NCBI GenBank assembly: GCA_965112635.1
Contig: OZ218778.1
Coordinates: forward strand, 1,845,807-1,909,806
Source of the DNA: an uncultured bacterium
Lineage (GTDB): Bacteria > Oederibacteriota > Oederibacteriia > Oederibacteriales > Oederibacteriaceae
Direction: 5' to 3'
Length of the DNA stretch: 64,000 nt
Shown: positions 29,376-59,744 of the stretch, piece by piece
How positions within the stretch are numbered: position 1 is the first letter of the stretch
Layout: the number at the start of each line of letters is the position of its first letter
Notes under the pieces: generated by a model
Seen by the model: only the letters and a program-made list of their open reading frames with translations
What the model was told of the DNA's origin: nothing
Databases searched by the model: none
Made by a program: the position numbers and the translations under genes

Positions 29376-32327
29376 ATGATCAGGAAGATCGGTTCCATAT
29401 TCGTTATCCTTGCCGCCATGGCGGCTGTTTTGAAAATGAGCGCCAGGGCGGAGGTGTTGACGCTTCCCATTACCCAGGACACTTCCATTTCCTGCTCCGA
29501 TGGGGAGCTGGATTTTAACCAGGGCAAATGCCCCAGGATCAAGATGAAAGGCATCGAGAACCTGCTGCTCCTGGGCATCGACCCGGCCTCCCTGAAGAAC
29601 AAAGTCATCACCAAGGCCATCCTTCATATCCAGGGCACGGACAAGAATATGATGGTCCGTAAAGTGGGTTTTTCCACGGTGGCCTATATCGGCTGGCCGG
29701 AGGGAAATTCGGAGCATGACAACAAGGGCACGGCAGGGGATTCTTGTTTCCTGACCCCGGAGCTGGGCTCCGGCAAAACCTGGGCCGGCCCGGGCTCCAA
29801 CTTTTTGGACGTGGTCTGGGGCCATGGCGGCACCTTTTGGACAGAGAGCTTTGTGCAGCCCGATGACCAGCAGTGGTACTTGATGGAGTTTGACGGCCGC
29901 ATTGTGGAGGCTTACGCGGCCGGTCTGTCAGGCGGTATCCTGGTCACCGACGACAACGGTGAGACCAAAGGCATAAGCAAAGATGCCGTTCCGGACACCA
30001 ACTATTCCAATAATTTATTCTTTGCCCATGAGCAAAACGCTTCGGCGCCGTTCCTTGTCGTGCATACCCAGGCGGCATCCAGGAGCGGGGCCAAGAGCCT
30101 CAAAGTGAGCGTCAAGCCGTGGAATTCAGGGGCTGATTTTGACAACGGCGGGCTGGAGCTATCCTGGCCCGGCCCCAGGGACCAAAAAGAATACAAGAGC
30201 ATCCTTGGATACAGGATCAAGATCACCAAGGGGGGCAAGACAGAGGACGTGCCTTTGTGGGCTCATCCGCCGCTGGCCAGACCAGGCGAAAGAGCCAGGG
30301 CTCTTTTGAAATATCCCGAAGCAGGCGCCAGGGTGACGGCCCGCGTCGAGGTAGTGGGCCGGGGCGGGGTCGTGGCGGCCTCGGGCGGAGCTAGCGGCGT
30401 CATATCCAAGAAGCTCAAAAATCCTAAGGCCCTTTCCTTTCCAGAGATCAAGAACGCTCCGGGAGAGCCTCTGTCCAACGACTTGGCCAAGATTTGGGTG
30501 ATCCCCGACTGTACCAAGGCTAATCCCATTACCGGCAATGTGCAGGAGGAAGCTGGCGTTTCCTATGACGGCGACCCCTCCGGCAGTTACCGCAACGCCA
30601 ATATGACCTGGAGCGGCAAAAACCACACGGTGACCTTGTCCGCCATCCGGGGCGAATGGGTCGGGTTCCAGGTCGTGTGCGAGAATGTCAGCACCACCAG
30701 CGTGACCTATAAGATCCAGCCGGGACCTCTCAAAGGTCCGGGGAGTTCCCTGATACCCGCCAAGGCCATTGAGCTTTCCAAGTTGTGGTATGTCAAGGTC
30801 GGCGACAAGGACAGGGACTGGTACGCGGACCCCATGCTGCCGCTCAAGGCCGGAGACTCTTTCTCGGTACCCGACGAAAAGAACGCCGTGCCCCAGCAAA
30901 GCAACCAGACCGTTTATGTCGAGTTTTTCGTGCCCTTAAAAGCAAAGCCCGGCAAATACGCGGGAAGCCTGGCCGTCAAAACAGGGGACCAGGGTACCTT
31001 GGCCCTCAAGGTCAATCTCCAGGTCGCGGCGCCGGTGATGCCCAAAGAAGCGCACTTTGTTTTCTCCATGAACGCTTACAACTCACCGGGCGGGCCTTAC
31101 GGAGACGCCTGTTTCAGTGATTTTAACAACGCCGAACGGACCTTCTATGTCATGGCCCATACCCATCGTACGGACCTTGTCGTGGTCCATTACAAACACA
31201 ACGGCGGCCTCGATGATGTGAACTGCATCGCTCCTCCTTTGACGGGCCAGGGCAAGAATTTGAGGGTCAAGGATTGGGCGTTGTGGGACAAGAGGTTCGG
31301 ACCGCTTTTTGACGCGTCCGCTTTTAAAGGGACCCCGCGGGAAGGCGTGCCGTTATCCCACTTTTTCCTGGTGTTCTCCGAGAACTATCCCACGACCATG
31401 GCCGACGGTTATAAGTGGAACAGCTCCACCTGGGAAGACCACTGGAAGGTGGCCGGCCAGCCCGAGGACGGGTTCAGCCAGGTTTACAAGGACCAGTGGG
31501 TGGCCTTGGCCAAGGATTACATCAAGCATTTCAAACAAAAACACTGGAAGACCAATTTCCTGCTGATGCCCAATGACAAGTGCGATTACAAACAATATAA
31601 CTCGGGCACCAAAAAAGACGGCAGCGGGGTCAGTTTCTGGAGGATGGATGAGCCGATGTTCGTCAGCGATTTTGAGGCCCTGGGAGTGCTGGGCAACCTG
31701 CTGCGGCAGGCCCAAAAAGGCGACCGCAGCAGCTTCAGCTTCCGGGCCGATATTTCCTACCCGCAGTGGGGCAGGGATGTCCTGGACAGGGTCCTGGACC
31801 TTAACTGTTCCGGCAATTTCACCGGATACAGGAGGTTCCTCCTGGACTGGAGAGAAAGGTACGGCGAAAGGATATGGACCTACGGCGGAACCCCTGCCTG
31901 CACGGACAGCCCGTTCGGGCTATGCGCTCACGCGTTGGATCTGTATTCCAGCGGAGCGGATGGTTTTGCGCCGTGGCTGGTGCTGGGCAACGAGGGCAAC
32001 TGGACCAAGTTCGAAGATACCAGCGTGATCTACACCGGCAAGCCCATGGGCATCATGGGAGCCTGCGCGTCGCTGAGGCTCAAAGCCTACCGCCGTGCGG
32101 AGCAGGATGTTGAGTATGTTTGGCTTTACGCGGCCAAGAAGGGATTGCTCAAGAACGACCCGAACCGGCTGCAAGTTGCCAAGGCGCTGGAAGGGGCCAT
32201 CAAGACCACCAAGCAGACCGGGAAACTTGATGCCAACGGCGGGGCGGAAGTGCAGACCTACATGAGCACCAACCCCGATGATTTTGAAAAGCTCAGGCTG
32301 GCCCTGGTCAAGGCGATGAAAAAGTAA
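29376..32327 (+). CDS. Large secreted hypothetical protein (~983 aa)
   Basis: GGAGG RBS at 29361, then MIRKIGSIFVILAAMAAVLKMSARA signal peptide. No recognisable catalytic motifs. The ORF-track start at 29106 would overlap secA and is unlikely. Confidence 0.5.
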   Translation: MIRKIGSIFVILAAMAAVLKMSARAEVLTLPITQDTSISCSDGELDFNQGKCPRIKMKGIENLLLLGIDPASLKNKVITKAILHIQGTDKNMMVRKVGFSTVAYIGWPEGNSEHDNKGTAGDSCFLTPELGSGKTWAGPGSNFLDVVWGHGGTFWTESFVQPDDQQWYLMEFDGRIVEAYAAGLSGGILVTDDNGETKGISKDAVPDTNYSNNLFFAHEQNASAPFLVVHTQAASRSGAKSLKVSVKPWNSGADFDNGGLELSWPGPRDQKEYKSILGYRIKITKGGKTEDVPLWAHPPLARPGERARALLKYPEAGARVTARVEVVGRGGVVAASGGASGVISKKLKNPKALSFPEIKNAPGEPLSNDLAKIWVIPDCTKANPITGNVQEEAGVSYDGDPSGSYRNANMTWSGKNHTVTLSAIRGEWVGFQVVCENVSTTSVTYKIQPGPLKGPGSSLIPAKAIELSKLWYVKVGDKDRDWYADPMLPLKAGDSFSVPDEKNAVPQQSNQTVYVEFFVPLKAKPGKYAGSLAVKTGDQGTLALKVNLQVAAPVMPKEAHFVFSMNAYNSPGGPYGDACFSDFNNAERTFYVMAHTHRTDLVVVHYKHNGGLDDVNCIAPPLTGQGKNLRVKDWALWDKRFGPLFDASAFKGTPREGVPLSHFFLVFSENYPTTMADGYKWNSSTWEDHWKVAGQPEDGFSQVYKDQWVALAKDYIKHFKQKHWKTNFLLMPNDKCDYKQYNSGTKKDGSGVSFWRMDEPMFVSDFEALGVLGNLLRQAQKGDRSSFSFRADISYPQWGRDVLDRVLDLNCSGNFTGYRRFLLDWRERYGERIWTYGGTPACTDSPFGLCAHALDLYSSGADGFAPWLVLGNEGNWTKFEDTSVIYTGKPMGIMGACASLRLKAYRRAEQDVEYVWLYAAKKGLLKNDPNRLQVAKALEGAIKTTKQTGKLDANGGAEVQTYMSTNPDDFEKLRLALVKAMKK

Positions 32328-32353
32328 GGCTTTACGATAGCTTGTTTTCAATC

Positions 32354-32396
32354 AGCCTATCCCTTGCGTAAAAGCAGGGGATAGGCTTTTTTTTTG
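32354..32396 (+). terminator. Rho-independent terminator
   Basis: agcctatccc-ttgcgtaaaagca-ggggataggct stem-loop followed by nine T. Confidence 0.7.
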
Positions 32397-32508
32397 GAAT
32401 TTAGACTGTTTCTAAGCATGTCGTCCGCCTGTAACTAACCGGAGATGATGGTAAACTTGACACAGCCGCTTCGTCGGGCATCCAAAATACATTTTTTGGG
32501 GCGTTGAA

Positions 32509-35175
32509 ATGGGCAGACGACTCGTTTTACTTATCATCCTATTTTGGTCTGTTTCGGCCTGGAAAGCTGAGGCGGCAGTGTACTGGTATATGGAGGCGCC
32601 CGGCTGGGTCGAACCCACCGGCAATCCCGATTGGACGAACCTGTCGTACTTTAATGTCTACAACGAGCTGACCACCACGGCCACAGGCCCAATCCTCGTG
32701 ACCTATACCCTGGCGAATGGTCTCACTTTTAAGCCCGTCTCTTTCGGATTACAGCCGTCCAGCGTCAACTATGACGCCGGCACCGGGGTGACCACCGTGA
32801 CCTATAATTTGGGCAGTATGGCCGGACAGACCAATAACTATGGTTATTGCGGCTTTGCTATCAATTACACCACGGTCAACCCCACGACCCTGATCCAGGA
32901 AAACCAGCAATTCACTGTGACAGCGACCCTGAGCGGGGCCAGCAGCGTCAGTGCCAACCCCCAGAGCTTCCAGGCGCCCGCTTTATTCGAGACCGTCGGC
33001 AAGAACATTGATCCCGACCCGATCGAGGCGGTGCCGAGCACGGCCACGGCCAACCTCTATTTGGAAACTTCGCAATATTATAACTGCTCCAACCTCGTGG
33101 TCTGGGATACGCTTCCCAACGGCACCTCCTACATCCCCGGCACCAGTTATCTGGATAACGAGACCAGCGATGAACCCGGGTCCGGGACCCAGCTCTGCCG
33201 TCCTGACGGGACTTCGCTGCTGGTGTGGTCTGTTCCAGCTGACCCTTGGACCCTGGCCGGGTCAGACCCCGTCCTGAGCTACGGGTTCACCATCAACTCG
33301 AATTACAGCGTTACGGGCTGCGACAGCGCCGGAGCGCCGGTCTATTGCACCGACATGCTGCCCAATCTCGTGGGTGACAGCTTTAATTACGCCAGCATCA
33401 GCGGCCAGTCCCCGGCCAACGCGGGATCCGCCCTGCAAACCGGTGTGTTTGCGGACATCGATATCGACGACCCCTCCATCACCAAGACCATCGGGAGCAT
33501 TACCGACAGCCAGGGTAACCCTGTTTCGGGTAGTTATGTCACGCCCGGCGATATCGTGACCTACAGCATCACGGTAGTTTCTCCGACGGCACCTACCCAT
33601 GACCTCAAGGTCAGGGATTTCCTGCCATCATCCATGGCTTTTTTGGGTTCCCTTACCAATTACACCACGACCGGAGGCGTGCCCGCGCCGACCCAGAGTT
33701 TTGTCAATTCCAATTTGTGCTACTGGACCTGGTCCGCGGATTTTCCCAAGGGCGGGTCCTGGAACGTCACCTTCCAGACCCAAGTGCTGGATAATACCTA
33801 TTTGCCCGACCCCGGGGCCTCGACCCTGACCAACATGGGCGATTTTTGGGACACTAATACCTCGGGGACCACCTCGGGGTTGGGACAGTACGATGCCCCG
33901 GATTTGACCTACCAGAACAATGTGGTTACGACCAAGAGCGCCAGCAAAAGCACGGGTACTGGCGGCGATATCATTAACTATACGATCGCGGTCACCAATA
34001 ACGGCGGCAGGGCCATTAACAATGTTGAGGTCTTTGACACCATCCCGGCCGGCATGACCTATGTCAGCAGCACGCCCACGGCCAGTTCCGAGGCCGTCAA
34101 CGGGGACTCCAGCACCACGGTCAAATGGAACAACCTGGGGATTCTGAACCCCGGCAGTTTCCTGACCCTCTATGTGTCCGCCTCGGTCAATCCGGGCGAC
34201 CCGGGAGGGGAGACACTGACCAATTTTGTCGCCCCTGTTTTTTACTCCTCCCAGCTGACCCCTGGAGCGCCCGGGAGGAACTATTACAACGGCGTTACGG
34301 CTTTGGCCAGCGTGCAGGTGGCCACCTGGACCATGACCCCGACCCAGACCAGGACAGCGACCGCCACCAGCACGCAGACCTATACCGCCAGCGCGACCGC
34401 CACCCCCACCAGCACCGCGACCCAGACCTCGACGGCGACGCAGACCCTGACCAGGACCTATTCGCTTACCGGGACGCAGACTTTCACTCTCACGCAGACC
34501 CTGACCCCGTCCCTGACGCTGACCAGCAGTTACACGGCCACCGCCACCAGCACGGCCACGCAGACATCCACTTCGACCTTGACGCTGACCCCATCCGAAA
34601 CTTTTACCCCCAGCGAGACGGCCACTTACAGCCAAACCTCCACGCAGTCCTATACGGTCACCCTGACCCTGACCCCTTCCAAGACTTTTACCCCCAGCGA
34701 GACGGCCACGATCACTTTGACCTGGACCATCACCTGCACTTCGACCAATTCCTATACCAGCACGCAAACCCTGACCCCTTGCCAGACCCTGACGCCATCC
34801 CAGACCCTGACGCCATCCCTGACCCAGACCCATACCCCAACCTTGACGCCGTCCCACACCGCGACAGCCACGCCTACCTTTATCACCACACCTCCCGCAG
34901 TCGGGACATCCTTTATTTATCCCTCACCGGCTACCGGGGACACGGCGGCCATTGCTTTTTTCATGTCCGTGCCAGGGAACTTCAAGATACGGGTGTATAA
35001 CGAGGCAGCCGAACTGGTGGAGACCGTAGAGGGGAATATGCAGGCAGGGCCGCAGTTGAGCATGATCCATACTAGGGACTATGTTTCAGGAGTTTACTTG
35101 TATATTATCAAGTTGGATTACGGGTCGCAGGGTTCCATCAAAATCGGTCCCAAGAAGTTCATTGTGTTGCATTAG
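32509..35175 (+). CDS. Secreted cargo protein: DUF11/CARDB-like repeat domains, TQT/TxT stalk, FlgD-Ig/CTD-like C-terminal domain
   Basis: Signal peptide. DUF11-type segments (VVWDTLPNGTSYIPGTSY; TIAVTNNGGRAINNVEVFDTIPAGMTYVSS). Stalk TQTRTATATSTQTYTASATATPTSTATQTSTATQTLT... (~34330-34900). C-terminus FIYPSPATGDTAAIAFF..FKIRVYNEAAELVETVEG......GVYLYIIKL. Confidence 0.7.
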   Translation: MGRRLVLLIILFWSVSAWKAEAAVYWYMEAPGWVEPTGNPDWTNLSYFNVYNELTTTATGPILVTYTLANGLTFKPVSFGLQPSSVNYDAGTGVTTVTYNLGSMAGQTNNYGYCGFAINYTTVNPTTLIQENQQFTVTATLSGASSVSANPQSFQAPALFETVGKNIDPDPIEAVPSTATANLYLETSQYYNCSNLVVWDTLPNGTSYIPGTSYLDNETSDEPGSGTQLCRPDGTSLLVWSVPADPWTLAGSDPVLSYGFTINSNYSVTGCDSAGAPVYCTDMLPNLVGDSFNYASISGQSPANAGSALQTGVFADIDIDDPSITKTIGSITDSQGNPVSGSYVTPGDIVTYSITVVSPTAPTHDLKVRDFLPSSMAFLGSLTNYTTTGGVPAPTQSFVNSNLCYWTWSADFPKGGSWNVTFQTQVLDNTYLPDPGASTLTNMGDFWDTNTSGTTSGLGQYDAPDLTYQNNVVTTKSASKSTGTGGDIINYTIAVTNNGGRAINNVEVFDTIPAGMTYVSSTPTASSEAVNGDSSTTVKWNNLGILNPGSFLTLYVSASVNPGDPGGETLTNFVAPVFYSSQLTPGAPGRNYYNGVTALASVQVATWTMTPTQTRTATATSTQTYTASATATPTSTATQTSTATQTLTRTYSLTGTQTFTLTQTLTPSLTLTSSYTATATSTATQTSTSTLTLTPSETFTPSETATYSQTSTQSYTVTLTLTPSKTFTPSETATITLTWTITCTSTNSYTSTQTLTPCQTLTPSQTLTPSLTQTHTPTLTPSHTATATPTFITTPPAVGTSFIYPSPATGDTAAIAFFMSVPGNFKIRVYNEAAELVETVEGNMQAGPQLSMIHTRDYVSGVYLYIIKLDYGSQGSIKIGPKKFIVLH

Positions 35176-35263
35176 CAAAAAAGGGGTCGGGTTGGATTTG
35201 CAAAAAGGAATAGACTCTAGGCAAATATCGAGGAGCATCACGCCTTTTCAGTGGCATTAGAGT

Positions 35264-36367
35264 CTAGTCCTTCAACCATTCTTCAAGATGTTTTTGGACA
35301 AAGGCGTCGTCGTTCAGGTGGGGGTAGGCCTTGTAGATGCGGTCGATTTCCCTGGCCTGGCCTGGGGAAAGGGTCAGGTGCGGGTCAAGGCACCAGATGC
35401 CTTTGAGGAGTCCCTGGCGGTGGAGGACTTCATGGAGGCCGGGAACGCAGCCTTTAAAATCGTGAGCTGAGTCAAAAAAAGCCGCATTGCAATCAGTGAC
35501 CTGAGGACCCAGTCGGACCAGCCAGCCAGGAATTGGCCTGTTTTTTTCCGTGACAGCGTGGATCTTGGCCAGCAATTCCACAGCGCAGCGAGTCCACACC
35601 GCCCAGTGCCCCAGCAGTCCTCCCTTGATACGCAGGGCGACCGTCTTTTTTCCCAGTTTGAATGTGTAAGGTGTAAGCAGGTCGCTGACGATATTATCGT
35701 CATTGCCCGTATAGAGAGTGATATCTTGAGCCCGGCTGCTGGCAGCCACGGCCCGGAGCACTTCCAAAGTCTGATAACGGTTAAAGGGCGAGATTTTGAT
35801 GCCTAGCACATTGTCAATCTCGGCGAACTCACGCCAAAATCCATAAGGGAGCGGGCGGCCTCCTACGGCCGGCTGAAGATAAAAACCAAGGATAGGAATG
35901 ACCTTGGCCACACGACGGCAGTGAGCCAACAGCTCTTGGACCGAAGCCTGGGACAAGGCGGCCAGGCTCAGCAGGCCGGCGTGGTATCCGCAGGACAGGG
36001 CCAGGCTGGCTTCTTTTATGGCCTGGTCAGTTTTACCGCAAAGGCCGGCAATTTTAAGCATGGACCTTTTATTTTTTACAGCGGCCTCATCCAAAGTTTC
36101 CGAGGCCAGTTGCAGTATAGGCAGGAAAAGATTGTATTTGGGCTGGCGGATCTCAAACTGGGTGGTATGGACACCCACGGCCAAACCTCCTGCTCCGGAC
36201 GCGTGATAATACCGGATCAAAGCTTTTTGTCTGATTGGGTCCAGGCGGCGCCGGCTATCCAGGGCCAGGGGCATGGCCGGTATGACCATGCCGCGCTGGA
36301 AATCAGCAAAAAGATTTTGCGGGACATCGTTGATTTTCATCTCAGTATTTTCCTGTCCGGACCTCAA
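35264..36367 (-). CDS. DHDPS/N-acetylneuraminate-lyase-family (class I aldolase) protein
   Basis: VIPAMPLALDSRRRLDPIRQKALIRYYHASGAGGLAVGVHTTQFEI resembles the DapA-family N-terminal TIM-barrel region. Overlaps the upstream SDR gene by 26 nt. Confidence 0.45.
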   Translation of the reverse strand: MRSGQENTEMKINDVPQNLFADFQRGMVIPAMPLALDSRRRLDPIRQKALIRYYHASGAGGLAVGVHTTQFEIRQPKYNLFLPILQLASETLDEAAVKNKRSMLKIAGLCGKTDQAIKEASLALSCGYHAGLLSLAALSQASVQELLAHCRRVAKVIPILGFYLQPAVGGRPLPYGFWREFAEIDNVLGIKISPFNRYQTLEVLRAVAASSRAQDITLYTGNDDNIVSDLLTPYTFKLGKKTVALRIKGGLLGHWAVWTRCAVELLAKIHAVTEKNRPIPGWLVRLGPQVTDCNAAFFDSAHDFKGCVPGLHEVLHRQGLLKGIWCLDPHLTLSPGQAREIDRIYKAYPHLNDDAFVQKHLEEWLKD

Positions 36368-37427
36368 AGTGCGTTGGTTTATTGAATTCCAGCCCCTTGT
36401 TTTTTACCCAATGCCCCACCCAGGCCACCATCTGGTCAACACTGACCCGGGGCTTTCCAAAAAGTTCCACGGCTTTGGAGGCGTTGGACAAGAGTGCCGT
36501 GTCGGATGCAACGCCCTCGAAAACCGGGTCGACGCCGAATATTTTACCGAATTGGCCGGCAATTGCCCTGATGGAAACAGTTTCCAAGCCCGTTACATTG
36601 ATGACCAGGGGAGGCGTCTGACAGAGGGGAAGGCTTCGCAGGACCATTTCCTGGGCGTCTCCCTGCCAGATGATATTGGCATAGCCGGTATTGAGGGGAA
36701 CTGCCTGACCCGTGAACACTTTTTTGGCCACATCCAAAAGCACCCCATAGCGCAGGTCAATGGCATAGTTGAGCCGGATGAGACAGGTCTTGGTCTTGTT
36801 CTCGCGGCTGAAATATTCAAAGATACGTTCCCTGGCCAGGCCGGACTGGGCATATTCTCCCACAGGGCCCGGAGTATCGGTTTCTTGGCAGCCGCCCATT
36901 TTAACAGGCGCGAGAGGATAGACATTGCCCGTTGAAAGCGCCACGATCCTGGAGCGTTTAAAACGGTTGGCGATGAAGGTAGGCGCCAGGGCATTGGTAG
37001 CCCAGGTCAGGTATTCGGCGCCGGTGGAGCCGAATTTGCGGCCTACCAGGAAAATAACATTGGCAGCGTCCGGCAAGTTCTTTATCTGGTCCTCGTTCAA
37101 AACGTCGGCGTTGAGGGTCCGGATATTATTTTTTTCCAGTTTTTCCTGGACACCAGGCTCGGAAAAACGGGAAACGCCGTACACATTACTTTTGAGGCCG
37201 CCAGCATCCAAGGCCCGGCGTAGCATCAAGGCCAGGGTGGGACCCATTTTCCCGGCAACGCCCAGGATGAGGAAATCCCCGGATAAGCGTTCCATGTCCC
37301 GTATAAGTTCAGGAGAAGGACGGGACATTACTTCTTCGAGTTCTTGTTCAGTAGATATGAATTTGGGGAGCTTCAGGTTTTTCGCTGCCATTTTCGGTCT
37401 CATTGTCCAGGGACCAGAGCCACACAA
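36342..37427 (-). CDS. NAD(P)-dependent epimerase/dehydratase-family (extended SDR) protein
   Basis: FLILGVAGKMGPTLALML Rossmann GxxGxxG at the N-terminus; ~361 aa; overlaps the RidA gene by 28 nt. Confidence 0.55.
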   Translation of the reverse strand: MCGSGPWTMRPKMAAKNLKLPKFISTEQELEEVMSRPSPELIRDMERLSGDFLILGVAGKMGPTLALMLRRALDAGGLKSNVYGVSRFSEPGVQEKLEKNNIRTLNADVLNEDQIKNLPDAANVIFLVGRKFGSTGAEYLTWATNALAPTFIANRFKRSRIVALSTGNVYPLAPVKMGGCQETDTPGPVGEYAQSGLARERIFEYFSRENKTKTCLIRLNYAIDLRYGVLLDVAKKVFTGQAVPLNTGYANIIWQGDAQEMVLRSLPLCQTPPLVINVTGLETVSIRAIAGQFGKIFGVDPVFEGVASDTALLSNASKAVELFGKPRVSVDQMVAWVGHWVKNKGLEFNKPTHFEVRTGKY

Positions 37428-37783
37428 TCGATCTCCAGGCTGAAAGTTCCCATGCCTGCCTGGACAGTGGTCCGGCTGGGGTAAGGTTCATGGACGAAAT
37501 TTTTATATACCTCGTTGAATTCAGAGAGGTTTTTAAAATCCGAAAGATATACATTTACCTTAACCACATTCTCCCAGGAAGTTTTGCTGGCCTCTAATAA
37601 AGAGCCCACATTGATCAAGGCTTGTTCTGCTTGGTCCTTGAAGGTCCCCTGTTTGGGTTCTCCAGTTACAGGGTCAACCGGAAGCTGGCCGGAAACAAAA
37701 ACGAGCGGTCCATCGACTTTCATGGCGGGTGAATAGGGGCCCTTGGGTTTGGCGCCCTTGTTTGAAAAGACGGCCTCACGCAT
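37400..37783 (-). CDS. RidA/YjgF/TdcF-family reactive-intermediate deaminase
   Basis: 127 aa. KPKGPYSPAMKVDGPLVFVSGQLPVDPVTGE...AEQALINVGSLLEASK..VVKVNVYLSDFKNLSEFNEVYKNFV..PSRTTVQAGM is the canonical RidA pattern. Confidence 0.85.
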   Translation of the reverse strand: MREAVFSNKGAKPKGPYSPAMKVDGPLVFVSGQLPVDPVTGEPKQGTFKDQAEQALINVGSLLEASKTSWENVVKVNVYLSDFKNLSEFNEVYKNFVHEPYPSRTTVQAGMGTFSLEIDCVALVPGQ

Positions 37784-37912
37784 GCTTTTTCCCTTTCCGT
37801 AACTTGATAATCGATCCCTAACTCTCTATACTTTAACAGAAAACTATTGTAATCTCATTTGCAGGCACGAACAATACCTGAAGAAAAACCATTGGTAAAA
37901 AAGAAGAAAACC

Positions 37913-39079
37913 ATGTTCCCAGGGAAACGACGAATCATCGCCTTGTTGGTGGTCTTTGGGGCCGTTGCGGGTTGGTCGGCAGTCCATGCTCAGACGAATA
38001 CTGCGACCAATACGGATACTGACACTGAGACGGCTACTGCAACCGCAACTCCCTCCGCTTCCGCGACAACCACCATGACTCTTACAGTCACCCCAACTCC
38101 CACGGCTTATTTATCCCTTATGAAGGTTGTGACGCCCAGCGGGGTTATCCTTCTTCCCGCGACTACCCAGACCCCAGTCACTTTTACCATCAGCTATTCC
38201 AATACGGGAGGCGAAGTTCTGACCAATGTGATGATTTGGGATACGCTTAATACCGGTTTGTGCTACCTGACCACCACGGCAGGGGCAGCCCTGACCGCCG
38301 ACAGCGTCATTTCTTGCACTTCAGGTTCTTTCCTGGTCTGGAACGCGCCATCTCCTCTAGTTCCCGGGAGCAGCGGCAATATTGTTTTTTCAGCCCTAAT
38401 TAATAATGTGCCCTATTACACCAATATAACTAATTTTGCGCTGGCCGGAGCCGACCAGCTAGCCAGCCCCGTGACCTCCACGACCACCAGTTCAATAATT
38501 ATTTATACCCTTCCTCAGGCGGGGAGCGCTCCTCCTACCTTTGTGTTGAATAATTTGTCCCTGCAGTTATCTTGGACCCCCGGCATAGCTGGAAGTTATC
38601 CTATAGCGGGATATCCTGTTTGGCGCAGCGCTGACGGTGGCTTTTCCTACTCGCAAATCACTTTGACCGGAAGCAGCATTACCAGTTGCACCGACCAACT
38701 TCCCGCAGTCCAAACGTTTATTTACCTCGTGAAGGTGATGGATACCCTGGGCAATGAAGTCGCTTATCCGCCTCTTGTCCTTAAACCTTTGCCGGTCAGC
38801 ATGGCACTGGACCACAACAGTTTTAATCCAGCCAAGGGCGGAACCTTGAACGTCAAATATCACCTCAGACAGCTCGGCAGTGTGTCCATCTACATCTATA
38901 ACCTCAGGGGAAATCTGGTCAGGAAATTGGTGGATGACACGGAGACTTTCGGGGAACATGTGGCCCAGTGGGACGGAAAGAACGGACAAGGAGATACAGT
39001 CAGCAGCGGGGTTTATTTGTTCCATTTAGAAGCCGCGGGAGGGGATGCCGTGAACCAGAGAGTGGCGGTCATCAAGTGA
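37913..39079 (+). CDS. Secreted cargo protein: short TxT stalk, DUF11-like and Fn3-like domains, FlgD-Ig/CTD-like C-terminus
   Basis: MFPGKRRIIALLVVFGAVAGWSAVHA signal peptide, then TNTATNTDTDTETATATATPSASATTT. C-terminus NSFNPAKGGTLNVKYHL..VSIYIYNLRGNLVRKLVD...AQWDGKNGQGDTVSSGVYLFHLEA. Its stop TGA 39077-39079 overlaps the ATG of the next gene. Confidence 0.7.
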   Translation: MFPGKRRIIALLVVFGAVAGWSAVHAQTNTATNTDTDTETATATATPSASATTTMTLTVTPTPTAYLSLMKVVTPSGVILLPATTQTPVTFTISYSNTGGEVLTNVMIWDTLNTGLCYLTTTAGAALTADSVISCTSGSFLVWNAPSPLVPGSSGNIVFSALINNVPYYTNITNFALAGADQLASPVTSTTTSSIIIYTLPQAGSAPPTFVLNNLSLQLSWTPGIAGSYPIAGYPVWRSADGGFSYSQITLTGSSITSCTDQLPAVQTFIYLVKVMDTLGNEVAYPPLVLKPLPVSMALDHNSFNPAKGGTLNVKYHLRQLGSVSIYIYNLRGNLVRKLVDDTETFGEHVAQWDGKNGQGDTVSSGVYLFHLEAAGGDAVNQRVAVIK

Positions 39080-40059
39080 TGGATAATTTCTTTCACCCAG
39101 GAAAATGCAGGAAGATCAATCCCGTGATCTTTGCTTGCTTATTTGTATTGTTCCCAACTTTTTTTATTGGGGTCTTTCCCAGCTTGAGCTGGGGCGGGGG
39201 AGCAGGAACAACTGGCGCTGATATTATGGCAGAGGAGTTGGGGGCCAGGCCCAGGGGCATGGGAGGCGCTTATGGGGCTGTGGCCAATGACGCCAATGCC
39301 GTAGATTATAATCCAGCGGGATTAACTCAGATCCTAAGGTCCAATGCTACCCTAACCCACTGGATCGAATTGGACGGCACGACCCTTGATTTCATTAGCT
39401 ATGTTTTGCCCCTGGGAGCCATGGGGACCGTGGCGGGCAGTGCGACCCTCCGTCAAGTCCCTTCCATCAGCAATACGACCGCTGAACCGTCAGTCAATGT
39501 GGACGATATTCTGGTGGGTCTATCCGGGGCAACAAAACTGGAGAATTGGTGGCCTGGTTTGTCGGGCGGAATGTCCTTAAAATTTGTCAGCTCCACCCTG
39601 GGAAACTATACGGCTTATACGGGAGCCCTTGACGCAGGGGTCCTCTTGGAGGACCTGCCCTACCATTCCAAGGCGGCTTTGGCCATGGAAAATTTAGGTA
39701 TGCCTATCAAATACATTGATGTGGCCGACCCCCTTCCGTTTTGCTTAAGGTTGGCCGGCTGCAGTCAGATCTTTGAAGATAGCGTCAAGGAGCTATTAGT
39801 AGCCGCTGATCTCGTTCAACCAATCAATGGCTACGCCAACTTGGACATCGGGGCTGAATTCATTTACCTCGGGTTCGTAGCTTTCAGGGGAGGTTATACC
39901 TTGGATTTTCAGGAAGGAACAAGGGGGCTCGTGGGCGGCCTTGGGATCAAGTATGTTTGGGATAAGACCGATTACAGACTGGATTATGCCTACAACCCTT
40001 TTTACTGGAAAAATAGTTACACGCCCACCCATCTGATCTCTCTGTCCGTATTCTTTTAA
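39079..40059 (+). CDS. FadL/TodX/PorV-family outer-membrane beta-barrel (cargo-adjacent paralog)
   Basis: Signal peptide, GARPRGMGGAYGAVANDANAVDYNPAGL N-motif, C-terminal beta-signal ...LISLSVFF. ATG 39079 shares its A with the upstream stop (TGATG). Confidence 0.65.
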   Translation: MDNFFHPGKCRKINPVIFACLFVLFPTFFIGVFPSLSWGGGAGTTGADIMAEELGARPRGMGGAYGAVANDANAVDYNPAGLTQILRSNATLTHWIELDGTTLDFISYVLPLGAMGTVAGSATLRQVPSISNTTAEPSVNVDDILVGLSGATKLENWWPGLSGGMSLKFVSSTLGNYTAYTGALDAGVLLEDLPYHSKAALAMENLGMPIKYIDVADPLPFCLRLAGCSQIFEDSVKELLVAADLVQPINGYANLDIGAEFIYLGFVAFRGGYTLDFQEGTRGLVGGLGIKYVWDKTDYRLDYAYNPFYWKNSYTPTHLISLSVFF

Positions 40060-40070
40060 GGCTTGCGGGA

Positions 40071-40820
40071 ATGAAAAATATATTTTGCAGAAGCTTATCA
40101 ATTATCCTGAGTCATTTGCTTCCCACGCATTGCCAGCAATGCCAGAAGATCCTGCGGGCCGCTCCAAACCCCTGTTTTTGTACGGAATGCTGGGGCAGTA
40201 TCAAGGTGGTCCGGAAACCGTTTTGCCAATACTGCGGGAAACCTTTCCCGTCTTCCCCTGGATTGGAGAAAAGCGGTCCCTCGCTGTGTTATTTCTGTAA
40301 GAAGAAAAAACCTTGTTTTGAAAAAGCAAGGGTAGCGGCGTTGTACGAGGGGGTCATGAAAAAAGCCATTCGTCTTTACAAGTTCGAGGATAAAGAAAGG
40401 CTGGCGCGCCCCCTCGCTGTTTTCCTTGAAAAAACCTGGAGGGACGAACCGGAGTTTGCGGGGTGCGAGGGGATCGTGCCCGTTCCTTTGTTTTGGAAAG
40501 TCCGAAAAGAGAGGGGATTTAACTCTGTCCTGCTTTTGGCCCAAGAGACAGGCAGGCTGTTGCGCTTGCCTGTCCTGGGTTACGGCTTGAAGAAAATCAA
40601 GCCCACCCTGCCGCAAAGGGGATTGAAAAGGAAACAGCGGTTGAAAAACATCCAGGGTGTCTTCGCGGCGGGCTCTGAATCCAATAAGATTGTCGGGAAA
40701 AAGATTTTGCTTGTGGACGACCTTTTTACAACTGGCGCCACCGCAGGCGAGTGCAGCATTGTCCTTAAACAAGCCGGAGCAAAACAGGTCTTTGTCTTGA
40801 CCTTGGCCCGGGGAGCCTGA
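40071..40820 (+). CDS. comFC: ComF/GntX-family phosphoribosyltransferase (competence protein ComFC)
   Basis: N-terminal zinc-ribbon Cys motifs CQQCQK..CFCTECW..CQYCGK; C-terminal PRTase motif KKILLVDDLFTTGATAGE. Confidence 0.8.
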   Translation: MKNIFCRSLSIILSHLLPTHCQQCQKILRAAPNPCFCTECWGSIKVVRKPFCQYCGKPFPSSPGLEKSGPSLCYFCKKKKPCFEKARVAALYEGVMKKAIRLYKFEDKERLARPLAVFLEKTWRDEPEFAGCEGIVPVPLFWKVRKERGFNSVLLLAQETGRLLRLPVLGYGLKKIKPTLPQRGLKRKQRLKNIQGVFAAGSESNKIVGKKILLVDDLFTTGATAGECSIVLKQAGAKQVFVLTLARGA

Positions 40821-40843
40821 GCCCAGAGAAAACAGGTTGGTTA

Positions 40844-40872
40844 TTGACAAGGAACAATGCATTGTTTAACAT
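40844..40872 (+). promoter_or_regulatory. Promoter candidate whose spacer is a perfect 14-bp palindrome AACAATGCATTGTT (putative operator)
   Basis: TTGACA at 40844-40849; palindrome at 40853-40866; TAACAT at 40867-40872; AAAGGAGG RBS and ATG at 40908. Confidence 0.4.
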
Positions 40873-40907
40873 TTGCTTCAAAACCAAACTTTAAAGGAGG
40901 GTTAAGC

Positions 40908-41453
40908 ATGAGGAAGATTGTTTTTGTTTTGGCGGTTGTTGTGGCCATGCTGTTCGCTTTAAAACCGGCACTGGCAAGAAAGAATGTGGCTGAGGAAGGC
41001 AGTGGCGGTATTGAGCAGATCGGCATTGGGTTGGATGCCATTCAGAATGCCAGTGGATCCGTTCCGGCTGCCGCTGTGCGGTTACAGATGGATAAGTTGA
41101 ATGTGGACGGCCTGCTGGGACTGCAGACCACCTCTAATCCCAGTGTGACCAATTTTGGGATTGGCGTGCAGGGCGGTTACCTGATCAAACAGACCACCAA
41201 CCTCAAAATAAGGGCCATGGGAAGATTCACCCTGGGCACCTACTCAGGGGGCGGCGTGAACGCCACGACGATCGGGCTAGGAGGGGGATTGAGCGCCGAG
41301 TTATTTTTATCCAATATCCCCGAACTTGGACTGGAAAGCAGCCTGTTGCTTGGATTGCTTTCCTCATCCGGGTCAGGCCAGTCCAGCACTACTTTTGGAA
41401 TTATGGGAAATGGGTTTACTCCGTTAACGCTGGCGATCCATTATTATTTCTAA
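40908..41453 (+). CDS. Small outer-membrane beta-barrel protein (OmpW/OmpA-like size)
   Basis: MRKIVFVLAVVVAMLFALKPALA signal peptide, alternating hydrophobic/Gly-rich strands, C-terminal aromatic beta-signal ...AIHYYF. Confidence 0.55.
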   Translation: MRKIVFVLAVVVAMLFALKPALARKNVAEEGSGGIEQIGIGLDAIQNASGSVPAAAVRLQMDKLNVDGLLGLQTTSNPSVTNFGIGVQGGYLIKQTTNLKIRAMGRFTLGTYSGGGVNATTIGLGGGLSAELFLSNIPELGLESSLLLGLLSSSGSGQSSTTFGIMGNGFTPLTLAIHYYF

Positions 41454-41486
41454 AAAATAGAACAGAAGTTTCTTAAAAAGGCCTTA

Positions 41487-42929
41487 TTGCTTGTTGGGAA
41501 TAAGGCCTTTTTCTTTGGCATAATATTGACTTTATCATTTGGCAAGCTACAATTTGCTCTAATGAATAACCCTTTGCGAAAAAACCCTTTAAAATCTATA
41601 AAAAATAGAAAAGCGGGAGCCGTTTTTTTATCGGTGCCAGTAGTCATTTTGCTGGTTTTGTCTGGTTTTTTGCCCGCATCCTCCGCTGTAAAAAAAGAGC
41701 CGGCCCGTGTTGTCCCTCAAGATAATTTGAACGGCAGTATCATCGGCATTCCCCTGAGCAAGGAAGTCAACGCCACCTATATCAATACCGGGCTTGTCCA
41801 TGGGGCAGAGCCGGGTATGCAATTCGGCGTCTACAGAAACGGTTCTTTGATCGCCGTATTAGAGATCACCATCGTGATGCAAAGGATGTCCGCGGTCAAA
41901 ATCGTACAGATGGAAAAAGGGGAATCGCTCCAAATCGGCGACCAAGTGGCCTTATTGCGCGGCGCTCCCGTCAGGCTTATCCCTAAGCGTAAGCCTGCAG
42001 AAGAAAGGCCCAAGCTTGCTCTGGGTCCGGAGAAACCGCCTGCTTACCTGCCTCAAGGACCGGCCAACGAACGGATCGCCCTACTGGAAAAACGGGTCGA
42101 TGAACTGGAAAAATTGCTGGCCAAGACTTACGCCATGATCCCCCAAGCCGGACCCCAGGAATTGGCAGTTCCGCCCTTGCCCGAGTTTCCGGTGGCCAAT
42201 GCGCCTTCCGCGACCACCCTCGCTTTGAATAATGCTCCTAAGGAAGAAGTCATTGAAGGCCCGCCTACAGCGGAATTAGAGAAGAAAACTGCTAAGCCAA
42301 AGGAAGAAGAGGTCGATCTTTGGAAGGCCGATACCCCTTATGATAAGATCCCGGAGACAGTACCCCAGACCCAGGAAGAAAAATCGCAGGATCTGGCAGA
42401 CACAGACAACGAATGGTCGTGGGGCACTCCTTATCAAAACAAGAAAGTCGGTCCCAAAGTCAGGCTTGACGTGGCCTTGCTGGATTCGGATGGGGATGAG
42501 TATCAGGGAGGGGCCAAGCTGACCGCCCGCTCCAATTTTGTGGACTGCAAAAATTGGGAACTCAAGATCGTGGACCAGGACGGGAAAGCGGTCAGGACCT
42601 ATTCAGGCAAAGACAAGCTTCCCACCGAAGTCGAATGGGACGGAAAAAACACCGCCTCGGAAAAGGTCAAGAACGGGCTTTACGCCTATGTGTTCAAGGC
42701 CGTAAGCATAGCAGGGGACCCAGCCGCTGCGGACGGTGAAATTCCCAGCCGGAACCCCACCCTGCTGGAAGAAAAGGACTGGAAAGCGGATACTCTGTAT
42801 GCTGATAATGCTCCGGGTACGAGTTCTGTTATCAAGGCGAAGCGCAAAGAAGACGTCGATTATCAAAGCCTTGTTTTGAATTCCGGTAAGATTTTATTTG
42901 CCATTGCCCTGCTTTTGTTGGTCCTGTAA
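41487..42929 (+). CDS. Membrane-anchored hypothetical protein with an internal FlgD-Ig-like domain and a C-terminal TM helix
   Basis: N-terminal hydrophobic segment, Pro/Glu/Lys-rich linker, NWELKIVDQDGKAVRTYSGKDKLPTEVEWDGKNTASEKVKNGLYAYVFKAV (same WDG..G.Y motif as the cargo CTDs), then GKILFAIALLLLVL at the extreme C-terminus. Alternative ATG start at 41562. Confidence 0.5.
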   Translation: MLVGNKAFFFGIILTLSFGKLQFALMNNPLRKNPLKSIKNRKAGAVFLSVPVVILLVLSGFLPASSAVKKEPARVVPQDNLNGSIIGIPLSKEVNATYINTGLVHGAEPGMQFGVYRNGSLIAVLEITIVMQRMSAVKIVQMEKGESLQIGDQVALLRGAPVRLIPKRKPAEERPKLALGPEKPPAYLPQGPANERIALLEKRVDELEKLLAKTYAMIPQAGPQELAVPPLPEFPVANAPSATTLALNNAPKEEVIEGPPTAELEKKTAKPKEEEVDLWKADTPYDKIPETVPQTQEEKSQDLADTDNEWSWGTPYQNKKVGPKVRLDVALLDSDGDEYQGGAKLTARSNFVDCKNWELKIVDQDGKAVRTYSGKDKLPTEVEWDGKNTASEKVKNGLYAYVFKAVSIAGDPAAADGEIPSRNPTLLEEKDWKADTLYADNAPGTSSVIKAKRKEDVDYQSLVLNSGKILFAIALLLLVL

Positions 42930-42935
42930 ACTTCC

Positions 42936-42957
42936 CCGCCCTAAAGGGCGGTGTTTT
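42936..42957 (+). terminator. Terminator-like hairpin (ccgccc-UAAA-gggcgg + tgttttc)
   Basis: Seen in sequence directly after the stop at 42929. Confidence 0.5.
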
Positions 42958-43013
42958 CATAAGGAGGAGATATCTTGTTTGTTCCTCCTCGCTACGCTCG
43001 GGCTGCCGTTTAT

Positions 43014-49694: not shown

Positions 49695-49769
<75 letters not shown>

Positions 49770-51662: not shown

Positions 51663-52583
51663 TTAGAAATCAACGGTCAAAGAAAAGCGATGGGCCTCGC
51701 CTAAACTGGCATAAGGCACAAAGGCGTAATCAAAATGATAATACATCAAACCCAGTAAAAGGGAATAGCCAAAACCCGTCGTGAACATGAAAGGCAGGGA
51801 GGTCTGCTCGATCAAGCCGAGCCTGACTGCCAGGTCCTGCGCGCCCCAACGGGAGTTGTATTCCAATCCCAGATGGATCCCCAAATCCTGGCCAATGAAA
51901 TCATAGGAGGTTTCAGCGGAGGCCAGAATATTGCGGGGTTGTTTTGTTTCTTCCTGCTGGCCGCCGATGTTTTCCATGAGTTCTCCCAAGGCGAACTTTT
52001 TAGCGATCCCTATCCTCAACAGCAAAGGCAGGGAATATCCGCCGAGCTCGGACCCGAGATTCTGCAGGGTCACGCCCAAGGAAGTTGCTTCGGCAAAAGG
52101 CCGGATGATGCCTCCCACATCAAAAGCGAAGCCGCTAAATCCCGCTCCCACAAAATCTTCGTGCAGCAGTTTAGCCGTGATGCCAGCGTGGAAGATCTTG
52201 GAAAAGGTCGTGCCATAACTTAATTCGCCGAACAAGGCTGAGAAATTGAGGCTGTCCGCGCTGGGCACGAACATGCCCGGCAAAGGGAAGGACGGGTCCG
52301 TGGGCGTCATTTCATCGGCTTTGGAAACAGGGGAGGACCCCAGACGATTAACGCAAATGCTGAGGCCGCTATGGTTGGAAAGGGGCAGGGCATAGGCCGC
52401 GCTGTCAAAACTGGTGCCCAGAAACCAGTTGATATGGGTGAAAGAAAGTTCCTGGAAGGACAGGTCGCCGAGGCCGGCCGGATTCCAATAGGTGGACAAG
52501 GTGCCGCTGGCCACGGCGCAATAGGCGTCCCCCAGACTGGACGGCCGGGAACCGGTGGCTATCAAAAACTCTTCGCCAGCCAC
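51663..52583 (-). CDS. FadL/TodX/PorV-family outer-membrane beta-barrel (cargo-cluster paralog); true N-terminus probably lies upstream (~52667)
   Basis: GSRPSSLGDAYCAVASGTLSTYWNPAGL N-motif; C-terminal ...HRFSLTVDF. The in-frame upstream sequence encodes a signal peptide (KSQAIAFLILFSILTHPLNSFAAG) with no canonical start codon. Confidence 0.65.
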   Translation of the reverse strand: MAGEEFLIATGSRPSSLGDAYCAVASGTLSTYWNPAGLGDLSFQELSFTHINWFLGTSFDSAAYALPLSNHSGLSICVNRLGSSPVSKADEMTPTDPSFPLPGMFVPSADSLNFSALFGELSYGTTFSKIFHAGITAKLLHEDFVGAGFSGFAFDVGGIIRPFAEATSLGVTLQNLGSELGGYSLPLLLRIGIAKKFALGELMENIGGQQEETKQPRNILASAETSYDFIGQDLGIHLGLEYNSRWGAQDLAVRLGLIEQTSLPFMFTTGFGYSLLLGLMYYHFDYAFVPYASLGEAHRFSLTVDF

Positions 52584-52780
52584 TGTGCCTGCCGCGAATG
52601 AATTCAGGGGATGCGTCAGAATAGAAAAAAGGATAAGGAATGCGATGGCTTGAGATTTTTGTGTCGTAGGGCTAACCTCCTAAAATATCGGGTCACTATC
52701 GGCAGAGAACCCAGGTATGGCTAGAGAATAATATTATACTACTGGTAAGAGAAGACCTGACCCAGGTTCACCATCATTCT

Positions 52781-59000: not shown

Positions 59001-59744
59001 GTCGCCAATGGCCATGCCTCCCTGTGTCCCTTCCTCACCAAAGCTCAAAGTCCAATCGGCTTGCGCACCGACGAACTGCTCGTTGTAGTTGGCTGGAACA
59101 GCCAGATCAACATCCGGATCAATGACCGCCTCACCCTTGGAGCCTACAGAGACCTTTAATTGCAGGTCGATGATGCCGTCCCCTTTTTGCTCGTAGGCCA
59201 GCAACCGGTGGTCCATTTTGGCCACATCAGACCAGCTGAAGTACCCAACGGCTTGTTTATAGCCTCCCCGCACAGGGAACGTCAGAGAGGCTCCCTTCAT
59301 GACAGGCATGACATAGCGGCTTAGACCGGGATAGTCCTTGGCCGGCCGTTCCAATTCTTCGTGGGCGCGAAAGTCCAGGGCCTCTTTTTTCTCCGGCAGG
59401 GCGTACTCTTTGCCCTCATAAACAACGCGGTCCGTGTCGATCTGATAGTAGAGGTGGAGCGTGGTTGTCTTGTCTTTTTGAGTGGGATTTTTGACCCGGA
59501 TAGTTTGTTTTAACGACCGTTTTTGGGTCGCCGGCGATGCTTTGCCCAGGTCGTAGGTCACTTTGACCCTAAGCGCAGGATCATCACAGACAGCACGGAA
59601 ATCTTTAAATCCCTGTTTCAGGTCCTCTCGTAAACCGTTACTTTCGAACCCTGCCCCGGAAACTAGTTGGCTCATGCCGCCTACTAGGAGGAGGGTGCCT
59701 ATGGTCAGGACTATCGTGAAAAAAGTTGTCGACGATTTATGCAA
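56088..59744 (-). CDS. Large cargo protein (1,218 aa): FG-GAP/integrin-alpha-type beta-propeller repeats, TxT stalk, three tandem FlgD-Ig/CTD-like domains
   Basis: FG-GAP motifs GDLNGDGIPDLVIGD, IGDLNNDNVNDLVMGG, IGDINGDNINDLAIGD, GDLTGNGTNSLVMGAG. Stalk NTNTSTATSTYTSTNTGTATPTHTISPTSTATNTPTSTAT... Three C-terminal repeats (LKVYDEAGEVV..WDGKSDLGYLVDSGQYVL; VSIYTTSGELV..WDGTTALGNYVQSGEYLI; YPNPYLS..VRIYDVVGELV..WDVNNTAAGLYVGIV). Confidence 0.75.
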   Translation of the reverse strand: MHKSSTTFFTIVLTIGTLLLVGGMSQLVSGAGFESNGLREDLKQGFKDFRAVCDDPALRVKVTYDLGKASPATQKRSLKQTIRVKNPTQKDKTTTLHLYYQIDTDRVVYEGKEYALPEKKEALDFRAHEELERPAKDYPGLSRYVMPVMKGASLTFPVRGGYKQAVGYFSWSDVAKMDHRLLAYEQKGDGIIDLQLKVSVGSKGEAVIDPDVDLAVPANYNEQFVGAQADWTLSFGEEGTQGGMAIGDLNGDGIPDLVIGDGNASYNGGGSGSVYIIYGGLVNFPLTMANQPDLNIFNNFDIRYDGPGGGANLGFALAIGDLNNDNVNDLVMGGGWAVWVKYGPFAGGPGAVVSFANPNNYNVEIVNNYAGAASFAIGDINGDNINDLAIGDIFYNNFAGRFISGSVFTIDGPLPAGPAAILDLNNVNNYDHLYVGAAAEVGMGQQVAIADVGGGAGGNTDGHPDLIMSAPGTSTNGKVNNGAVYVIYGPIGGGPGVMVDMNNINNCNVRFDGAQSANASEEMPYTAAPGDLGDGIALGFLNGNLDLAMGAAGENSQGRNGNGSVYIVYSNDNPTNFPLGNGNDVDLNLVNNFNIRLDGDGAFGAYATDFGDNMAIGQLCFSCTPVPSLAIGAGDAGSGALSNKPNNIWENGVVWVTTGPWTAGKGQIRDIANPAFYTMRYYGVSLGTGGEEVGGGNVLIGDLTGNGTNSLVMGAGLGEELGRPYCGDVYVENVTPCVSNTNTSTATSTYTSTNTGTATPTHTISPTSTATNTPTSTATITVTATITLTSTSTNTATPTATVTTLYSFTFTYTATETGTPTTTPTPLPTSTNTNTFTESATTTTTYTPLPTSTMTNTATITLTSTVTVTSSVTLTSSLTWTPSKTQTQTHTATVTATNTPVMTNLELKVYDEAGEVVKTFSNVLVLGGFSGIQLSSGSGSTIFDPNSGLFDIEIKSAGIIYHVPWDGKSDLGYLVDSGQYVLKADIPGLQGNTVVMPLTVLKSGDLLTVSIYTTSGELVKQLYQSYFVQGQLGSMKLTSNLLQISNQPTGTTTIGINIFSSTGQLMADGLGSLNQARLTWDGTTALGNYVQSGEYLIKIDQTYNHQHDVLVQSVTVLSSNLSGFMDASVYPNPYLSTPDHKVWFKVALQDQSSLTVRIYDVVGELVNTLSLPAAGPGIATLGWDVNNTAAGLYVGIVEADSQVSGQTQKKPLKISIIK

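Follow-up and report, generated by a model that had tools for sequence, protein, structure and literature searches.

A pair of adjacent genes and their products

The subject of this analysis is a pair of adjacent genes on the forward strand of a 64,000-nucleotide stretch of DNA (hereafter the window) from an uncultured bacterium of the Oederibacteriota (assembly GCA_965112635.1, contig OZ218778.1, positions 1,845,807 to 1,909,806). The first gene encodes a predicted secreted protein, termed here the cargo, that ends in an immunoglobulin (Ig)-like C-terminal domain (CTD), and the second encodes a predicted outer-membrane beta-barrel related to PorV and PorQ of the T9SS (type IX secretion system). 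The window is ordinary chromosome, with genes for SecA, PurA, SerA, Lnt, TsaB, RimI and GspE; as the nearest PurA is 60% identical and matches are spread across several phyla, the lineage is deep and poorly sampled. The features of the locus are as follows.

37804-37832, +: promoter-like site TTGATA-17-TATACT (10/12 consensus matches, a pattern match only), in the divergent intergenic region 5' of the cargo gene
37913-39079, +: cargo gene, ATG start, 388 amino acids; signal peptide 1-26 (AVHA, then QT), Thr-rich linker, DUF11 domain 84-175, middle region, CTD at about 303-388
38825-39076, +: stretch of the cargo gene that encodes the CTD (residues 305-388, last letters ...RVAVIK); alignable with five further CTDs of the window
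39076-39081, +: stop/start junction GTGATG; barrel start at ATG 39079 (-1) or GTG 39076 (-4)
39079-40059, +: barrel gene, 326 amino acids; signal peptide residues 1-39 (SWG, then GGAGTTGA), N-terminal plug-like segment, beta-barrel of about 14 strands, PorV/PorQ family
40071-40820, +: ComF-family gene (DZR_2 and ComF matches), starting 11 nucleotides past the barrel gene

The cargo carries an N-terminal Sec signal peptide and, at its extreme C-terminus, an Ig-like beta-sandwich. In Pfam it matches FlgD_ig (PF13860; 34.4 bits, cut-off 27) and DUF11 (24.6 bits, cut-off 24.6), and its middle region resembles Ig or Fn3 domains by eye only, with no family match. The type B domain CHU_C (PF13585) stays below its cut-off (20.9 vs 27), and matches to NF033707 and NF052228 span the CTD only, far under the cut-off; judged by its sequence, the cargo is neither PorU nor PorZ. 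The full-length AlphaFold2 model is unreliable (predicted local distance difference test score, pLDDT, 41.6), the CTD being the sole usable part. For residues 303-388 the model is a beta-sandwich (pLDDT 60-89) that superposes on the Ig domain of FlgD (root-mean-square deviation 2.5 over 81 residues) and on portions of PorU and PorZ, presumably their own CTDs. No homologues of the cargo were detected outside the same genome.

The barrel matches NCBIfam NF033709 at 105.5 bits (cut-off 90, E = 4e-30), with residues 44-324 aligned to profile positions 1-324 of 326, and falls far below the equivalog cut-offs for PorV (NF033710; 21.1 vs 250), PorQ (NF033711; 50.8 vs 220) and PorV2 (28.6 vs 325). It has no match to PorP/SprF (PF11751) at E <= 0.01 and none to Toluene_X in Pfam. 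On these profile scores the barrel is a member of the PorV/PorQ family and not an orthologue of PorV, PorQ or PorP/SprF. Its AlphaFold2 model, built from 35 sequences (pLDDT 87.6, predicted template modelling score 0.81), has about 14 strands after the plug-like segment, and the top Foldseek matches in the PDB are two PorV chains of Flavobacterium T9SS translocon complexes, 8gl6_F and 6h3i_F (E = 1.8e-14 and 3e-11 respectively; TM-score 0.71 in each case). FadL structures are significant but lower matches (TM-score 0.5-0.59). The product is thus a FadL-like 14-strand barrel with a Sec signal peptide whose nearest structural relative is PorV. A preliminary description of the locus, made from the letters alone, had taken the pair for a CTD-bearing secreted cargo and a PorV/FadL-like barrel, and the family profiles and the barrel model bear this out.

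The stop/start junction and the barrel start

The cargo frame ends GTC ATC AAG TGA, with the stop codon at 39077-39079, and the barrel ATG at 39079-39081 uses the same A, so that the two genes overlap by one nucleotide (TGATG, -1 class). This shared A, the central observation of the preliminary description, holds in the sequence and in an independent assembly: a contig assembled from short reads by Logan (L004) matches window positions 31226-43000, junction included, with 100% identity, and GTGATG is therefore not an assembly artefact. In the barrel frame, the ATG is directly preceded by a GTG codon (39076-39078), which the preliminary description had left out. The hexamer GTGATG accordingly holds both standard classes of overlap, GTGA (-4) and TGATG (-1), between co-directional genes. 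Prokaryotic genes that run in the same direction are most often spaced by -1 or -4 nucleotides (PMC10666635, PMC6728339), and as a translational feature the cargo/barrel overlap is ordinary, an example of the commonest type of prokaryotic junction.

No stop interrupts the barrel frame between 38968 and its own stop codon at 40057-40059. Upstream of the barrel start the Shine-Dalgarno (SD)-like match is weak (GAGTGGCGG, -5.5 kcal/mol, vs -9 to -12 for strong sites of the window). The RNA around the junction shows no unusual structure (fold z = -0.02) and no Rfam match. A consensus scan gave no promoter-like site near the barrel start, the nearest being a weak 9/12 match about 580 nucleotides upstream, and a scan between 39079 and 40071 gave no terminator-like site. 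The ComF gene probably shares a transcript with the pair, although a functional relation is not obvious. Two other explanations of the junction were considered and rejected. A programmed frameshift producing a cargo-barrel fusion is contradicted by the lack of a slippery heptamer in 39020-39079 (inspected by eye) and by the need of the barrel for a signal peptide of its own, and the 37-codon stretch open in the barrel frame 5' of the ATG is within chance expectation (about 0.17). Recoding of the TGA is at odds with a CTD that finishes at this codon with the family-typical ...VAVIK; the next TGA in the cargo frame lies 16 codons on.

The public gene call for the barrel (P0001) gives 277 amino acids from Met50 (39226). 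Read from ATG 39079, the protein begins MDNFFHPGKCRKINP, continues with a hydrophobic core and reaches SWG followed by GGAG, which together make a plausible signal peptide whose total length is comparable with lengths present in homologues. In the alignment with homologues, residues 40-47 (GGAGTTGA), which lie 5' of Met50, match the conserved mature N-terminus of the family (GAGTTGA). The corresponding motif, G-x-G-T-[TS]-G-A, lies inside the protein in every aligned sequence except a truncated paralogue of the window (51663-52580), and all aligned homologues from other genomes have a signal peptide just ahead of it. Both the signal peptide and the aligned mature N-terminus mark the overlapping codon as a genuine initiation codon. 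The only other candidate that keeps the hydrophobic core is an in-frame GTG at 39124, which leaves the n-region uncharged. On the sequence evidence the upstream start that overlaps the cargo gene (39076/39079) is evidently the real one, with GTG 39124 as a less likely alternative.

In the preliminary description, an independent start further downstream with a promoter of its own, together with an overlap that is not conserved, was named as the finding that would undo the proposed coupling. A downstream start does stand in the public call, which fulfils half of this, yet the Met50 call is evidently wrong because it removes the signal peptide together with conserved residues. The public call for the cargo (P0163) is likewise cut, to 334 amino acids from Met55 vs 388, with loss of the signal peptide, and that for the ComF gene is also shortened at its start. 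Since both calls of the pair drop signal peptides, surveys of secretomes or outer-membrane proteins that use them would miss the pair.

Gene order in the window and in other genomes

Four PorV-family barrels are encoded in the window. Three of them directly follow the gene of a CTD protein, and the fourth is a tandem copy within the third such locus. The nearest homologues of the barrel from other genomes are about 33% identical, and in six of the seven independent contexts found in a first round of searches a CTD-ending gene lies directly upstream; the seventh has a glycosyltransferase gene in this place. One of the two nearest homologues (P0003, locus L001) has the junction ATGATG, which again holds both the -4 and the -1 overlap, and the remaining junctions have gaps of 8, 15, 23 and 23 nucleotides with clear SD sites, apart from one with a frameshifted cargo.

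With each species represented by a single genome, a wider scan yielded 389 relatives. The 80 loci retained from these belong to Elusimicrobia, FCPU426, Stahlbacteria, Zixibacteria, Marinimicrobia, Ignavibacteria, Calditrichota, Bacteroidota, Eisenbacteria and others. CTDs were detected at the extreme C-termini of open reading frames (ORFs) with a hidden Markov model (HMM) built from six CTDs of the window. A same-strand upstream ORF with such a terminal match is present in 56 of the 80 loci. The kept loci contain 80 CTD-ending ORFs in all: 55 immediately upstream of the barrel, 16 starting at most 1.5 kb downstream, eight elsewhere on the same strand and one on the opposite strand. The barrel gene thus stands directly downstream of a CTD-protein gene at the locus described here, at two other loci of the window and at 55-56 of the 80 loci retained.

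In other respects the proteins encoded upstream are not related to one another, with CBM30, M4 protease, Big_5/CARDB, CarboxypepD_reg, S8 and DUF11 domains besides one large unannotated family, and the conserved element is therefore the adjacency of CTD and barrel. All ten barrels tested are NF033709 members, and none of the ten reaches an equivalog cut-off. The large family accounts for 34 of the 56 upstream CTD proteins, is about 1100-1250 amino acids long and occurs in phyla of the Fibrobacteres-Chlorobi-Bacteroidetes (FCB) group, including Bacteroidota (for example L043 232-3915, L049 527-3994 and L015 585-4013, with 31 other loci). That it might be PorU, and its loci porU-porV, was considered and rejected, as three representatives had no NCBIfam or Pfam match of any kind; nor is it PorZ. 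It looks like an uncharacterised conserved partner of the PorV-family barrel.

The manner in which the two genes are joined is more variable. Over the 55 junctions the median gap is 14 nucleotides and 31 are at 15 nucleotides or less; nine are ATGA overlaps and none is of the -1 class. The preliminary description had proposed that the overlap be sought in homologous loci, and it recurs in a minority of them, as these nine ATGA overlaps and as the ATGATG of the P0003 locus, the sole other instance of the -1 class, while most loci have a spacer of 8-25 nucleotides and an SD site of their own. Spacing and SD strength vary together: where the genes overlap or are at most 4 nucleotides apart the SD is weak (median -3.3 kcal/mol), and where the gap is 8 nucleotides or more the barrel has its own SD (median -7.9 kcal/mol; p = 5.5e-5). 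This suggests that an overlap and a short spacer with an SD site can stand in for one another as means of linking synthesis of the barrel to that of the cargo, and the junction of the window (-5.5 kcal/mol) belongs with the weak-SD class.

The other CTD-protein and barrel loci of the window, one before and one after the pair described, are the following.

13-7974, +: CTD protein of more than 2653 amino acids, running off the window start; precedes the locus 1 pair
8031-8423, +: locus 1 CTD protein, 131 amino acids, with little beyond signal peptide and CTD
8433/8442-10085, +: locus 1 PorV-family barrel with C-terminal TPR domain, 550 amino acids, 9-18 nucleotides after the 131-amino-acid gene
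53755-55992, -: locus 3 cargo, S8 subtilase-DUF11-CTD
52781 to about 53767 and 51663 to about 52667, -: locus 3 barrels 3a and 3b, PorV family (NF033709, 93.2 and 102 bits)

The locus 1 barrel has a strong SD ahead of GTG 8442 (-11.9 kcal/mol). At locus 3, both barrels have a signal-peptide-like coding stretch 5' of the first canonical start that is without ATG, GTG or TTG. Candidate starts for barrel 3a are ATT 53767 and ATA 53758, the latter forming, with the TAA of the S8 cargo (53757-53755), an ATAA of -4 geometry with a near-cognate start; for barrel 3b there is an ACG at 52667, 8 nucleotides beyond a strong AGGAGG (52681-52676). The sequence is unchanged in a second assembly (L096), and the missing canonical starts could reflect non-canonical initiation, gene decay or a shared consensus error. 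Two public assemblies of the genome agree fully for 7.8 kb before they lose register at about position 7782 of L096, within GspE (about 51200 of the window, - strand), which suggests a 1-nucleotide indel in one of them.

Several further observations concern the wider family and the window. The 16 CTD-ending ORFs downstream of barrels (L014-L093) indicate that some loci may be cargo-barrel-cargo arrays. A TPR-matching barrel of a length like that of locus 1 occurs in L035, and long barrel ORFs (about 500-680 amino acids) also occur in L018, L034, L066 and L072. In L005, L006 and L009/L010 (7543-8326), a PorV-family barrel of about 500 amino acids is followed by a BamD/YfiO-like TPR gene; a FadL-like subunit, BamG, has lately been found in the BAM complexes of Bacteroidota (PMC12578637) and is of possible relevance to these pairs. 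Large secreted proteins are unusually dense in the window (13-7974; 41487-42929; 56088-59744, - strand; 59810-63373, - strand), most of them without an adjoining barrel. A DUF11-only protein at 32509-35175 has no CTD family match, and a tRNA-Gly(CCC) gene (49695-49769, +) is the sole RNA gene detected in the window.

A probable cognate pair, its alternatives and its relatives

The cargo gene (37913-39079) and the barrel gene (39079-40059) are best read as a co-transcribed, probably translationally coupled, cognate module of a CTD protein and its barrel, to which we assign a probability of about 0.62. Transcription would begin upstream of the cargo gene, and ribosomes ending at the cargo TGA would reinitiate at the overlapping GTG or ATG. 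Overlapping pairs were strictly coupled by termination-reinitiation in 13 of 14 tests (PMC6728339), and coupling requires that the genes overlap or lie a very short distance apart, collapses at gaps of about 20 nucleotides, and is enriched among pairs whose products are parts of heteromeric complexes (PMC10666635). Given the weak SD at its start, barrel synthesis is proposed, from the anatomy of the junction and the published behaviour of overlaps, to depend on cargo synthesis. The preliminary description had gone further and spoken of stoichiometric co-expression, which over-reads the junction: coupling makes the barrel depend on, and be capped by, synthesis of the cargo and sets no 1:1 ratio. 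Both proteins, which have signal peptides in their sequences, would then cross the inner membrane via Sec; the barrel would insert into the outer membrane, and the Ig-like CTD of the cargo might dock on it and so keep the DUF11/Ig-like passenger at the surface of the cell, by analogy with PorU and PorZ, whose CTDs stay on PorV and PorQ (PMC10202324), and with type B CTDs, which remain attached to PorP/SprF shuttles. The passenger could cross the outer membrane through an SprA-like translocon encoded elsewhere or by another route.

Several observations weigh against this reading. In the window, genes without a functional relation are joined by overlaps of this kind as well, namely those for a MerR-family regulator and TsaB (ATGA 15715-15718, +) and for a RidA-like protein and an epimerase (ATGA 37400-37403, -), and about a quarter of same-strand neighbours are at most 11 nucleotides apart, so that the overlap alone says little on function. 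The window encodes at least eight CTD-ending proteins and four barrels, which leaves most CTD proteins without a private barrel. A Mantel (mirror-tree) test of CTD against barrel similarity gave r = 0.61 (p = 0.018) and only r = 0.09 without one orthologous pair, and hence no co-divergence signal for cognate specificity. No T9SS core genes (SprA/Sov, PorK/L/M/N, PorU) are present in the 64-kb window, and the cargo CTD stays under the T9SS type A cut-offs (PF18962 Por_Secre_tail 22.3 vs 27; TIGR04183 21.7 vs 23). The first of these points, with the general commonness of -1 and -4 overlaps (PMC10666635), the surplus of CTD proteins and the lack of co-divergence, would also be expected if the overlap reflected nothing beyond genome compaction, with a shared transcript, a neutral overlap, and a barrel that serves as a general PorV-like shuttle or porin for many CTD proteins. 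This explanation is unlikely in view of the order of the genes. A CTD gene precedes three of the four barrels of the window and those of 55-56 of the 80 loci, which span many phyla, and the asymmetry of strand and position is strong; if the genes had no functional connection, this would be difficult to account for. The upstream proteins are mutually unrelated apart from the CTD, so that it is the adjacency itself that is conserved. The preliminary description had ranked the overlap above all other evidence of a functional unit. Since neighbours with no relation overlap in the identical way within the window, the real evidence is the recurring gene order.

Two further alternatives concern the barrel alone. 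It might initiate independently downstream, at GTG 39124 or at Met50, leaving the overlap without a translational role. Besides the public call at Met50, the in-frame GTG has in its favour an AGGAAG 10 nucleotides upstream (-4.3 kcal/mol) and would leave a signal peptide of 27 residues, a typical length, which is a further point against coupling at the overlap. The Met50 start, however, deletes both the signal peptide and the G-x-G-T-[TS]-G-A motif, and the gene caller that proposed it also cut the signal peptide of the cargo, so that its starts are unreliable here. A start at GTG 39124 would give an n-region without lysine or arginine, as in only one of 55 family members (a count in which the rule for picking starts itself favoured charged n-regions), and total signal peptide lengths like that of the barrel read from the overlap are present in homologues; a downstream start is thus quite improbable. 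The barrel might otherwise be a FadL-type channel for hydrophobic compounds, with an incidental CTD-gene neighbourhood. FadL structures are indeed significant matches to its model, and some homologues have precomputed Toluene_X or UPF0164 matches in Pfam, but the barrel itself lacks a Toluene_X match, exceeds the NF033709 cut-off, is matched best by PorV chains and belongs to a family with a conserved adjacency to CTD genes, all of which make a channel of this kind very improbable.

Among known systems, the coupled module proposed here has the geometry of the coupled overlapping pairs of Huber et al. 2019 (PMC6728339) and PMC10666635, with -4/-1 spacing, a weak SD and a plausible complex. In contrast to coupled cytoplasmic pairs, its products would be exported separately by Sec, and an advantage of co-translational assembly cannot apply directly. 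The nearest precedent for the gene arrangement is SprB-SprF of Flavobacterium johnsoniae (Fjoh_3952-Fjoh_3951), in which a type B CTD substrate is followed directly by its cognate PorP/SprF-like shuttle; matched amounts of the two proteins were inferred to be necessary, and the barrel anchors its own cargo (PMC12618676, PMC9143113). The pair shares with this system the order of cargo and outer-membrane barrel and the presence of several paralogous pairs per genome. It differs in that the barrel belongs to the PorV/PorQ family (NF033709) and has no PF11751 match, that the CTD is FlgD-Ig/type A-like and not type B, that the organism comes from a deep lineage, and that no T9SS core gene is seen in the window. 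In the T9SS of Porphyromonas gingivalis, the uncleaved CTDs of PorU and PorZ bind FadL-like 14-strand barrels, PorV and PorQ respectively (PMC5562754, PMC10202324). The barrel family is the same, porU (PG0026) and porV (PG27) have consecutive locus tags in the same order, and portions of PorU and PorZ can be superposed on the model of the cargo CTD; in contrast, the passenger here is a small DUF11/Ig-like protein, neither a sortase nor a lipopolysaccharide carrier, and the barrel fails both the PorV and the PorQ equivalog cut-offs. The barrel is significantly similar in structure to FadL/TodX transporters, which likewise have 14 strands and a plug segment at the N-terminus, but the match is weaker than to PorV, Toluene_X is not matched, and the neighbours are CTD genes rather than catabolic genes.

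The pair is accordingly a variant of the known theme of a CTD protein with a dedicated PorV-like barrel, differing in barrel family, CTD type and phyletic spread. Dedicated cargo-barrel pairs are established for type B CTDs and PorP/SprF in Bacteroidota (PMC12618676, PMC9143113); an earlier description of pairs of a FlgD-Ig/type A-like CTD and a PorV/PorQ-family barrel, above all from lineages said to be without a T9SS, was not found in the literature searched, which was a single library and gives no proof of novelty. Genomes have more than one copy of such a pair, and its range extends beyond the FCB group (to Elusimicrobia, FCPU426, Stahlbacteria, Desantisbacteria and the present lineage); reviews describe the phyla of this spread that lie outside the group as without T9SS genes (PMC11285876). 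That the pair is a self-contained module for surface display or export, working without a canonical T9SS, is a speculative and rather unlikely extension of these observations; if true, it might represent the ancestral core of the T9SS attachment complexes or a new route by which proteins are placed on the outer membrane. The pairing matters more than the overlap, as a barrel gene stands directly behind a CTD gene at three places in the window and at about 70% of the 80 related loci, which represent a dozen phyla. If the genomes concerned are truly without SprA and PorKLMN, such pairs would show in what way CTD and barrel recognise each other, and perhaps came to do so, independently of the full secretion machine.

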